A DNA stretch of 55,200 nucleotides from a virus (taxonomy: Duplodnaviria; Heunggongvirae; Uroviricota; Caudoviricetes), in IMG/VR virus record IMGVR_UViG_2923302340_000007; one strand, 5' to 3'. Positions 9,001 to 12,000 of this stretch are shown here, one piece after another (position 1 is the first letter of the stretch; each line of letters starts with the position of its first letter). A program made the position numbers.

Positions 9001-12000
9001 TGATAAAAGCGTATACACCTGGCGTGTGGCTTATAACAACGTTCAGCAGGAACAGCCAGCGCGGGCAGAACTGCCGGAAGAAACCACCACGGCAACAGTC
9101 GCTAAAATTTCGGAGAGCGATTTAACTGCGACGATTGAACAACGTGGACCACAAACGGCGGATGAACTGGCTACGCTGTCCGGTACCACATCCCGCAAAG
9201 TGGCTTCAACGCTGGCAATGGCAATCAGCAAAGGTCGTCTGATTCGTGTAAACCAGAACGGTAAATTTCGTTACTGCATACCGGGTGATAATTTACCAGC
9301 AGAGCCGAAAGTTGAATCGGTAGCGGAAACCGATGGTAAAGCCTTTCCTCAGCCTGCAGGTGTTGCGTTACCAGTACAGGAAGTTGCAACACAGGAAGAT
9401 ATTAAAATAGAAACTGTGGCTGATATTGTGCAATCGTTGCCATCGTTTACTGAAACGCGAGCGGATGACCTGGTTTTACCATCGCTGCATATGGCAAACC
9501 GCGAATTGCGTCGGGCGAAAAATCATGTCCAGAAGTGGGAGCGTGTCTGCGCCGCGCTGCGGGAGCTGAACAAGCACCGGGATATTGTCCGACAGATTGT
9601 CGATTCCTCCAGTCGTATTGTGTCGGAAAAGTGATTGCCGGGGGCGCTTATGGCAAAAGTATTTACACAAGAAGAGCGAGAAAAAATTAAAGGGCAGGTT
9701 GTTGAACTGGTACGCCGGAGTGGACGCGAGACGTTACGGCAACTGGAAGCCAAGACAGGTGCGACAAGATATCTGATGAGCGTTCTCGCCAGAGAGCTGG
9801 TTGCCAGTGGCGATGTATACAACTCTGGTTACGGGTTATTCCCGTCTGAACAGGCTCGTAAGGACTGGCAAAATGCCCGCAAAAAACTCACTAGGGCAAG
9901 GGCGAAGAAACCCGCTGTGGTTGATCCGGGCCTTATCTGGTCATTAGATGACGGAGAAATACGTCGCTACGACAGGCGTCATAATATAATTTGTGGATTT
10001 GCCCCTATATTTCCAGACATCTGTTATCACTTAACTCATTACAGGCCCGCTGCCGCAGATATTCCCGTGGCGAGCGATAACCCAGCGCACTATGCGGATG
10101 CCATTCGTTATAATGCTCGAACGCCTCTGCAAGGTTCTTTGCTGCCGTTAACCCGTCTGGTTTGGGCATGATACTGATGTAGTCACGCTTTATCGTTTTC
10201 ACGAAGCTCTCTGCTATTCCGTTACTCTCCGGACTCCGCACCGCCGTGTTCTTCGGTTCAAGTCCCAACATCCGGGCGAACTGGCGTGTTTCATTAGCCC
10301 GGTAGCATGAACCATTATCCGTCAGCCACTCCACTGGAGACGACGGAAGATCGTTGCCGAAGCGGCGTTCCACCGCTCCCAGCATGACGTCCTGTACTGT
10401 TTCACTGTTGAAGCCGCCAGTAGTCACCGCCCAGTGCAGTGCCTCACGATCACAGCAGTCCAGCGCGAACGTGACACGCAGTCTCTCTCCGTTATCACAG
10501 CAGAACTCGAACCCGTCAGAGCACCATCGCTGATTGCTTTCTTTCACGGCCACTCTGCCTGTATGTGCCCGTTTCGATGGCGGTACAGCAGGTTTTCGCT
10601 CAAGCAACAGCGCATTCTGGCGCATGATCCGGTAAAACACGTTTGGCATTGATCGCAGGCATACCATCAAGTTCTGCCTGTCTGCGAAGCAGCGCCCATA
10701 CCCGACGATAACCATACGTGGGCAGCTCTCCGATAACATGGTGTATACGGAGAAGCACATCCGTATCATCAGTGTGACGACTGCGGCGGCCATCCATCCA
10801 GTCATCGGTTCGTCTGAGAATGACGTGCAACTGCGCACGCGACACCCGGAGACAACGGCTGACTAAGCTTACTCCCCATCCCCGGGCAATAAGGGCGCGT
10901 GCGCTATCCACTTTTTTGCCCGTCCATATTCAACGGCTTCTTTGAGGAGTTCATTTTCCATCGTTTTCTTGCCGAGCAGGCGCTGGAGTTCTTTAATCTG
11001 CTTCATGGCGGCAGCAAGTTCAGAGGCAGGAACAACCTGTTCTCCGGCGGCGACAGCAGTAAGACTTCCTTCCTGGTATTGCTTACGCCAGAGAAATAAC
11101 TGGCTGGCTGCTACACCATGTTGCCGGACAACGAGGGAGACCGTCATCCCCGGTTCAAAGCTCTGCTGAACAATTGCGATCTTTTCCTGTGTGGTACGCC
11201 GTCTGCGTTTCTCCGGCCCTAAGACATCAATCATCTGTTCTCCAATGACTAGTCTAAAAACTAGTATTAAGACTATCACTTATTTAAGTGATACTGGTTG
11301 TCTGGAGATTCAGGGGGCCAGTCTAATTTGTAATGAGTGCCGTAACAGTGAAGTGATGCAGAGAGTTTTGATATTTTGCACAGGAGTAATGATGGAGCAG
11401 TGAAAACAATATGAAATCTTTAGCTTCTGGTATTGTAACAGATGGGAAAAGTGTAGATATATGGAAATTGCATAGCAATAATTCGCAGCATGGATGCTAT
11501 TCGTATGTTGATAAAGTGGTCCCAGTATGCGAGTGTAAGAGTTGAACCAGTTCCAACTAAGAAATTGGGGGGATAATATAGAAGGTGGCTAAGTGAATGT
11601 GGTTATGATTATCTGAAAAACAAATGGAATATTTTAATGGGTCTAAGAACACAGCAATGCACAAATTAGGGGTTATCTTTTACTGTGCTTATTAATATGC
11701 TCAATGACCCATTAGGATTGATGTCAGTTATGTTAGCCAGAGTGATAAAGTGATTATATCTCTGCTGTTATATGCTGAAATGAATAATACTATTCCAGAG
11801 TGCAGCAGCGAAAGTCTCCTGATGATTGAGTTCTGGAAATTGTACGACAGAAAAATTACTATATTTTTCTGCTAAAATATTTTTCAAAACAGATTCTGCT
11901 TTAATGGCTTCAGGATATAAAGATGTGGAGTAATCAAGGCTAAGATCTCCGCTAAGTAAGCATATACTTTTAGTATGCTTTGATTCTGGCATGTCATTTT

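Follow-up and report, generated by a model that had tools for sequence, protein, structure and literature searches.

The interrupted early-region locus of a Cdt-I-like prophage

The window, by which we mean the whole 55,200-nucleotide stretch of DNA analysed here, carries a Cdt-I-like lambdoid prophage integrated at serU. From the left, its genes run from the integrase through a RecE-like exonuclease, dicB/ydfB/ydfC, a cI-like repressor, cro, YdaT, and DnaT-like and P-like genes to DUF1627 and a DUF977 gene interrupted by an IS2 element. These are followed by an AT-rich esterase moron on the opposite strand, hokD, rem, DUF968, RusA, a Q-like antiterminator gene (15639–16193), a methylase, the lysis genes, and a lambda-like late region. 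The DUF977 gene occupies the position of lambda ren in the early-right operon, between the replication genes and the Q-like antiterminator gene. At the right end of the prophage, the cdtA-cdtB-cdtC operon (51271–53479) consists of full-length ORFs that are 97.5% identical to the Cdt-I phage AB285204. To the right of the operon, within the 51271–55200 region, a serU tRNA-Ser fragment (attR) precedes the host gene zinT.

IS2 divides the DUF977 gene, also named 'lygF', into two fragments on the plus strand, a 5' fragment with codons 1–114 and 2 nt (9650–9993) and a 3' fragment with codons 116–138 and the stop codon (11331–11403). The insertion is located at codon 115. The interrupted ORF runs into IS2 as far as 10171 and encodes a 173-residue hybrid, in which residues 1–115 of the DUF977 protein are retained and the conserved C-terminal 23 residues are replaced by 58 IS2-derived residues.

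The slot after DUF977 (11404–13200) is a variable moron site across prophages. In the window and in E. coli JP538, it holds an AT-rich (38–40% GC) esterase or alpha-beta hydrolase gene on the opposite strand, and other prophages carry TetR, adenosine deaminase, NTP pyrophosphatase and SIR2, or a DUF5677 gene at the same place. The content of this slot suggests possible defence or accessory cargo. In the tail-fibre gene (47178–49583), we observed a 189-nt tandem duplication (47700–48179), which is 92% identical and built of 21-nt periodic units.

The IS2 element and the uninterrupted DUF977 allele

The left boundary of the element, TGGATTTGCCCC, begins at 9994, and the right boundary, GGGGCCAGTCTA, terminates at 11325, giving a span of 1332 bp (9994–11325, minus strand). 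As the reference, we used IS2A of E. coli K-12 MG1655 (NC_000913.3, 381260–382590; 1331 bp). An end-to-end global alignment of the minus strand of the window element with IS2A shows 99.4% identity, with 7 substitutions and 1 inserted base. Three of the seven substitutions are private to the window copy. Both imperfect terminal inverted repeats are present on the minus strand, IRL as TAGACTGG... and IRR as ...AAATCCA. The right terminal inverted repeat (9994–10034; 41 bp, a length taken from PMC3219604) has the same sequence as that of IS2A, and the left one (11284–11325; 42 bp, from PMC3299598) differs by a single A-to-G change at position 32. We considered this change as an end defect and rejected it, since other IS2 copies have the variant and one of them is annotated as intact. 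The element is flanked by a 5-bp target-site duplication, ATTTG, at 9989–9993 and 11326–11330, and each of 13 other IS2 copies examined likewise has its own 5-bp duplication. The window element, although defective, belongs to IS2 (IS3 family, IS2 group).

Excision of 9994–11330 joins 9650–9993 to 11331–11403 in a 417-nt reading frame of 138 codons and a stop codon. The natural uninterrupted site is found in E. coli JP538, which has a single ATTTG and a junction, AATATAATTTGTAATGAG, the same as that of the excised window. Between JP538 and the excised 8800–12600 region, there are 2 mismatches in 2464 nt and no indels, and the restored protein agrees at every residue (100% identity) with the DUF977 protein annotated in JP538. 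By chance, equal 5-mers would occur at two fixed boundary positions with a probability of approximately 1/1024. With the empty-site allele and the restored frame, the insertion is proven to the extent that sequence allows. The initial annotation had described a 1332-bp IS2 with an ATTTG duplication inside an early-region gene and had anticipated that its removal would fuse the flanks into one ORF of about 139 codons. The boundaries, both repeats, and the full-length collinear alignment of 9994–11325 to the reference agree with this description; the gene order places DUF977 in the ren slot of the early-right operon, and excision with translation recovers a continuous ORF with a known uninterrupted allele. 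A survey of 5,426 complete E. coli genomes gave no instance of this exact insertion, and its exact left and right junctions had no matches in genome, viral, and metagenome contig collections. The sole match of at least 80% to the interrupted locus proved to be an unrelated IS2 at another place in a prophage of similar type and was discarded.

The restored protein matches Pfam DUF977 (PF06163) with 89.8 bits (cutoff 22.1) over residues 1–133 and PHROG 142, 'Ren-like exclusion protein', with E = 2e-43. A search of phage databases, which had been proposed along with the first reading of the locus, identified it as 'LygF', with 64–92% identity to the proteins of this name in 24 records of Rac-like and Stx phages. 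In the PDB, no meaningful relative of the restored protein was found by sequence. DUF977 is predicted to adopt a winged-helix DNA-binding fold (PMC2686095), and the predicted winged-helix N-terminal part is kept in the hybrid. In the literature, we found no experimental function for 'lygF' and, for DUF977, one paper's fold prediction only. The name 'lyg' itself was found only in Salmonella genome-announcement papers on Enteritidis-specific genes, and it looks like a positional rather than a functional gene name, linked to ydaO. The DUF977/'lygF' gene is not essential for replication. As judged from the hybrid ORF, the C-terminus of LygF would be lost or altered and its function may be lost.

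Frameshift in insD and decay of the prophage

The single inserted base in the element lies in a T run of insD. K-12 IS2A has AAACGTGTTTACCGG at this position and the window has AAACGTGTTTTACCGG, so that GTTTAC becomes GTTTTAC with one extra T. The resulting TTTT run (10634–10637, minus strand; AAAA on the plus strand) is a +1 insertion that breaks insD. insC/orfA (10869–11234, minus strand) encodes an intact 121-residue protein with one substitution (A36V) and an HTH_Tnp_1 match, and the A6G programmed −1 frameshift motif (10911–10917, minus strand; motif according to PMC3219604) is intact, with the N-terminus of orfB in the −1 frame relative to orfA. The 5' part of insD/orfB (10600–10911, minus strand) is in frame as far as the T run and stops after 11 out-of-frame codons. 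The 3' part (10005–10633, minus strand), with the DDE/rve catalytic domain, is in a different frame, and the rve and rve_3 domains are encoded by this displaced frame alone. No translatable DDE OrfAB is found in the copy; the OrfAB fusion is in the correct frame through residue 200 and stops at 211 residues, compared with 409 residues in K-12. In the IS2 transposase, the HTH spans residues 13–58, an LZ-like motif residues 73–100, and the catalytic site residues 236–398 with D240, D306, and E342 (PMC3219604). Since the truncation at 211 residues precedes the catalytic residues 236–398, the copy is predicted to make OrfA and a DNA-binding, dimerising stump and no catalytic transposase.

The initial annotation had reported that insD is split over two frames at a TTTT run where the reference has TTT, and had concluded that the copy is probably immobile. 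The split and the extra T were borne out, with TTT in the reference and the catalytic domains found only in the shifted frame; the run had been placed near 10625–10630 and is actually a few bases further to the right, at 10634–10637. As for mobility, the loss of the copy's own transposase stands, and immobile is too strong a word for an element whose ends, orfA, and A6G motif are intact. We predict the copy to be non-autonomous. With both terminal repeats, orfA, and the A6G site preserved, it could be mobilised in trans by another IS2.

The IS2 insertion is one of at least 10 lesions in the prophage, and its decay is concentrated in the late region. Two identical IS66-family elements of 2,699 bp each (25876–28574 and 29149–31847), with tnpA, tnpB, and tnpC ORFs of 225, 115, and 523 residues, lie in inverted orientation 574 bp apart within the lambda gpC-like head protease gene. 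The 8-bp duplications of the two copies, CTTGAACC and GCTGATTT, are swapped and the intervening 574-bp segment is inverted; removal of both copies and re-inversion of the segment restore one 498-codon frame. This arrangement indicates an IS-mediated inversion, which may have come about through recombination of one copy with the other or through intramolecular replicative transposition. The lambda gpB-like portal gene contains an in-frame TAG (24952–24954), which splits it into ORFs at 24223–24954 and 24970–25824. In the DUF968 gene (14221–15276), codon 294 is a nonsense codon (15100–15102; TGA, compared with GGA in JP538). The tape-measure gene (37340–39746) is distributed over three reading frames, and the tail genes L, K, and J (40232–46488) have 12 frame-breaking indels relative to JP538.

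Whether the extra T is a mutation or an artefact was assessed from its distribution and from the quality of the surrounding sequence. For a 61-mer centred on the T run, 5,747 E. coli records (17,839 places) contained a single match that was exact over the full length; among the matches listed for 2,693 plasmid records there was none of this kind, and 9 phage records likewise had none. The sole other exact TTTT copy is located at the ygeH locus of strain DJH_137urine (2387–3721 of the retrieved locus) and is annotated as frameshifted; it has a 3-bp CTG insertion and 5 substitutions relative to the window copy, and probably reflects an independent slip or an artefact of assembly. The window copy is thus almost alone in having the TTTT allele, a distribution that fits mutation in situ as well as a sequencing error. 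We regard the extra T as probably genuine decay, although a single-base gain in a homopolymer is also a classic sequencing or assembly error. If such an error were placed on a genuine IS2 insertion, the copy would be intact and autonomous. The +1 change does sit in a short homopolymer, TTTT is nearly absent among the approximately 17,800 IS2 places, and the other TTTT copy, with its 3-bp insertion and its annotated frameshift, could itself be an error. On the other hand, all 30 other genes of the approximately 19-kb collinear early region are single full-length JP538 matches with no intragenic frame-breaking indel, the two IS66-family copies show 100% identity across 2,700 nt, and the frame-breaking indels elsewhere in the prophage cluster in the tail genes and are mostly outside homopolymers. 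These observations disfavour a uniformly error-prone assembly, and the three private substitutions fit a drifting copy. We therefore regard an error as unlikely, and a real, biological frameshift as the likely explanation.

A real frameshift could also have been present before the insertion, if a non-autonomous TTTT lineage of IS2 was mobilised in trans by an intact IS2. Both ends, orfA, and the A6G motif are intact, as such mobilisation would need, and a second TTTT copy exists at a different locus in a different strain. In addition, background transposition of null-mutant IS2 has been attributed to chromosomal copies (PMC3219604). However, TTTT is not circulating, as the single chromosome record, the lack of a listed plasmid match, and the absence from the phage records indicate, and an independent slip is the simpler explanation for a second copy that differs by 5 substitutions and a 3-bp indel. 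Moreover, IS3-family transposases prefer to act in cis, which also counts against a defective arrival. We consider such an arrival improbable, and a little more so than a sequencing or assembly error.

It is instead very probable that a standard IS2 insertion into the DUF977 gene of a Cdt-I-like prophage was followed by the insD frameshift. IS2 would have entered codon 115 of the 138-codon gene by its usual copy-out/paste-in route, with ATTTG as the usual 5-bp duplication, and the anatomy of the element and its duplication is exactly the product of this route. The replication genes and the Q-like antiterminator gene would then have had 1.3 kb of foreign DNA inserted between them. One T would later have been gained in the TTT run of insD, most likely in situ, leaving a copy that would keep orfA and both ends and would have lost self-transposition. 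We infer this order, insertion and then frameshift.

Delayed-early transcription toward the Q-like gene (15639–16193) may be subject to polarity from the insertion. In a promoter and terminator scan of 9400–11900, the number of sites did not exceed that in shuffled sequence, and the plus strand within IS2 had no terminator-like site; rho-dependent termination is outside the scope of such a scan, which has no bearing on polarity. In the literature, nothing usable was found on classical IS2 polarity.

A known element and a known kind of event are involved, and the locus represents routine prophage decay. For annotation, 9650–11403 is best treated as a DUF977 pseudogene with an IS2 insertion, and the transposase gene of this IS2 as a frameshifted pseudogene. 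IS2 and the other lesions mark the cdt-carrying prophage as a defective remnant, from which induction of a viable phage is very unlikely. Since the prophage is defective, the cdt toxin genes are probably fixed chromosomal genes that are not transmissible by phage. The toxin cargo persists here on a prophage that looks dead.

Recurrent IS2 insertions and comparison with known systems

IS2 has repeatedly entered DUF977 genes and the region that follows them. In complete E. coli genomes and the window, we found at least five independent insertions inside DUF977 genes of prophages, at codons 16, 55, 81, 92, and 115 (the window), and at least seven downstream, at +29, +86, +197, +391, +1123, +1720, and +1869 bp; the tally is at least 12 independent insertions in approximately 2.4 kb, five of them in a 417-bp gene. 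These counts come from inspection of the best 40–60 matches of each search. A separate duplication accompanies every insertion, and the element is found in either orientation. We found no common target motif among the insertions in and after DUF977 and, among the best matches listed, no IS2 within approximately 1.5 kb upstream of the gene. Two apparent patterns were rejected. At a query coverage of at least 80%, 46 genomes carried IS2 in the window orientation, and the resulting same-orientation bias was an ascertainment effect, as a query with flipped IS2 recovered 16 genomes in the other orientation. A flipped IS2 that seemed to occupy the very site of the window in a group of genomes was actually located at codons 16 and 55, the coincidence being a piece-joining artefact.

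The recurrence may reflect regional preference or tolerance, and it raises the idea that DUF977 and the downstream moron slot are a preferred or selected IS2 target, in which case the window insertion would not be neutral decay. Such insertions could ground prophages, either by parting the replication genes from the Q antiterminator and uncoupling early transcription from the Q-dependent late genes or through the loss of a Ren-like protein with an exclusion or regulatory role; the window IS2 would then be one such event, fixed by the loss of its own transposase. The five or more independent insertions in DUF977, the seven or more within 2 kb downstream, their own duplications in both orientations, the lack of listed upstream insertions, and the Q-like gene downstream all speak for this idea. 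Against it, the counts are small and un-normalised genome-wide, the genomes are phylogenetically non-independent, prophage accessory regions generally tolerate IS insertions, the insertions share no target motif, and the window prophage is already dead through many other lesions. As an explanation of the window insertion, a preferred or selected target is the least probable of the alternatives, and we are equally doubtful that DUF977/'lygF' and the moron slot form a regional IS2 hot spot or selected target in E. coli lambdoid prophages. The recurrent hits on DUF977 offer a small clue to how IS2 chooses its targets or how prophages become domesticated.

Apart from the extra T in orfB, which makes the window element 1332 rather than 1331 bp long and shortens OrfAB from 409 to 211 residues, the element has the organisation of K-12 IS2A: it is collinear at 99.4% identity and shares IRL and IRR, orfA, the A6G slippery site, the rve domain of orfB, and the 5-bp duplication. 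The closest parallels at the same gene are the DUF977 insertions in the strain H2 group, APEC O78, 2017.17.03CC, and CFSAN029787, which are full-length IS2 elements with 5-bp duplications in genes of the same family and share the slot of the window after the replication genes and DUF1627. They differ from the window in their positions (codons 92, 16, 55, and 81), in their duplications, in occurring in both orientations, and in being all 1331 bp long. Where their annotation was inspected, these copies have an intact programmed-frameshift transposase, unlike the window copy.

IS2 insertions in the early-right region of lambda are classical. One example is lambda r32, said to have been described by Brachet et al. 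in 1970 and Fiandt et al. in 1972. Like the window IS2, these insertions lie in the pR-driven delayed-early operon, where polarity on distal genes is expected. The classical cases are laboratory mutants in the cII-O region, whereas the insertion in the window is natural and affects the ren-position gene of an early region of the Rac/Qin-like type.

Damaged IS2 copies in lambdoid prophages are also found in the Stx2-converting phages AP012536 and AP012537, in which OrfA and OrfB are annotated as pseudogenes. Unlike the window copy, these elements have the normal TTT, are damaged elsewhere (1327-bp match), and interrupt an nleG-like gene. The inducible Cdt-I phage (AB285204/NC_009514) shares the lambdoid backbone and the cdtABC genes, at 97.5% identity, with the window prophage. 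Unlike this phage, the window prophage has many lesions, among them the IS2, a pair of IS66-family copies together with an inversion, nonsense codons, and frameshifted tail genes.
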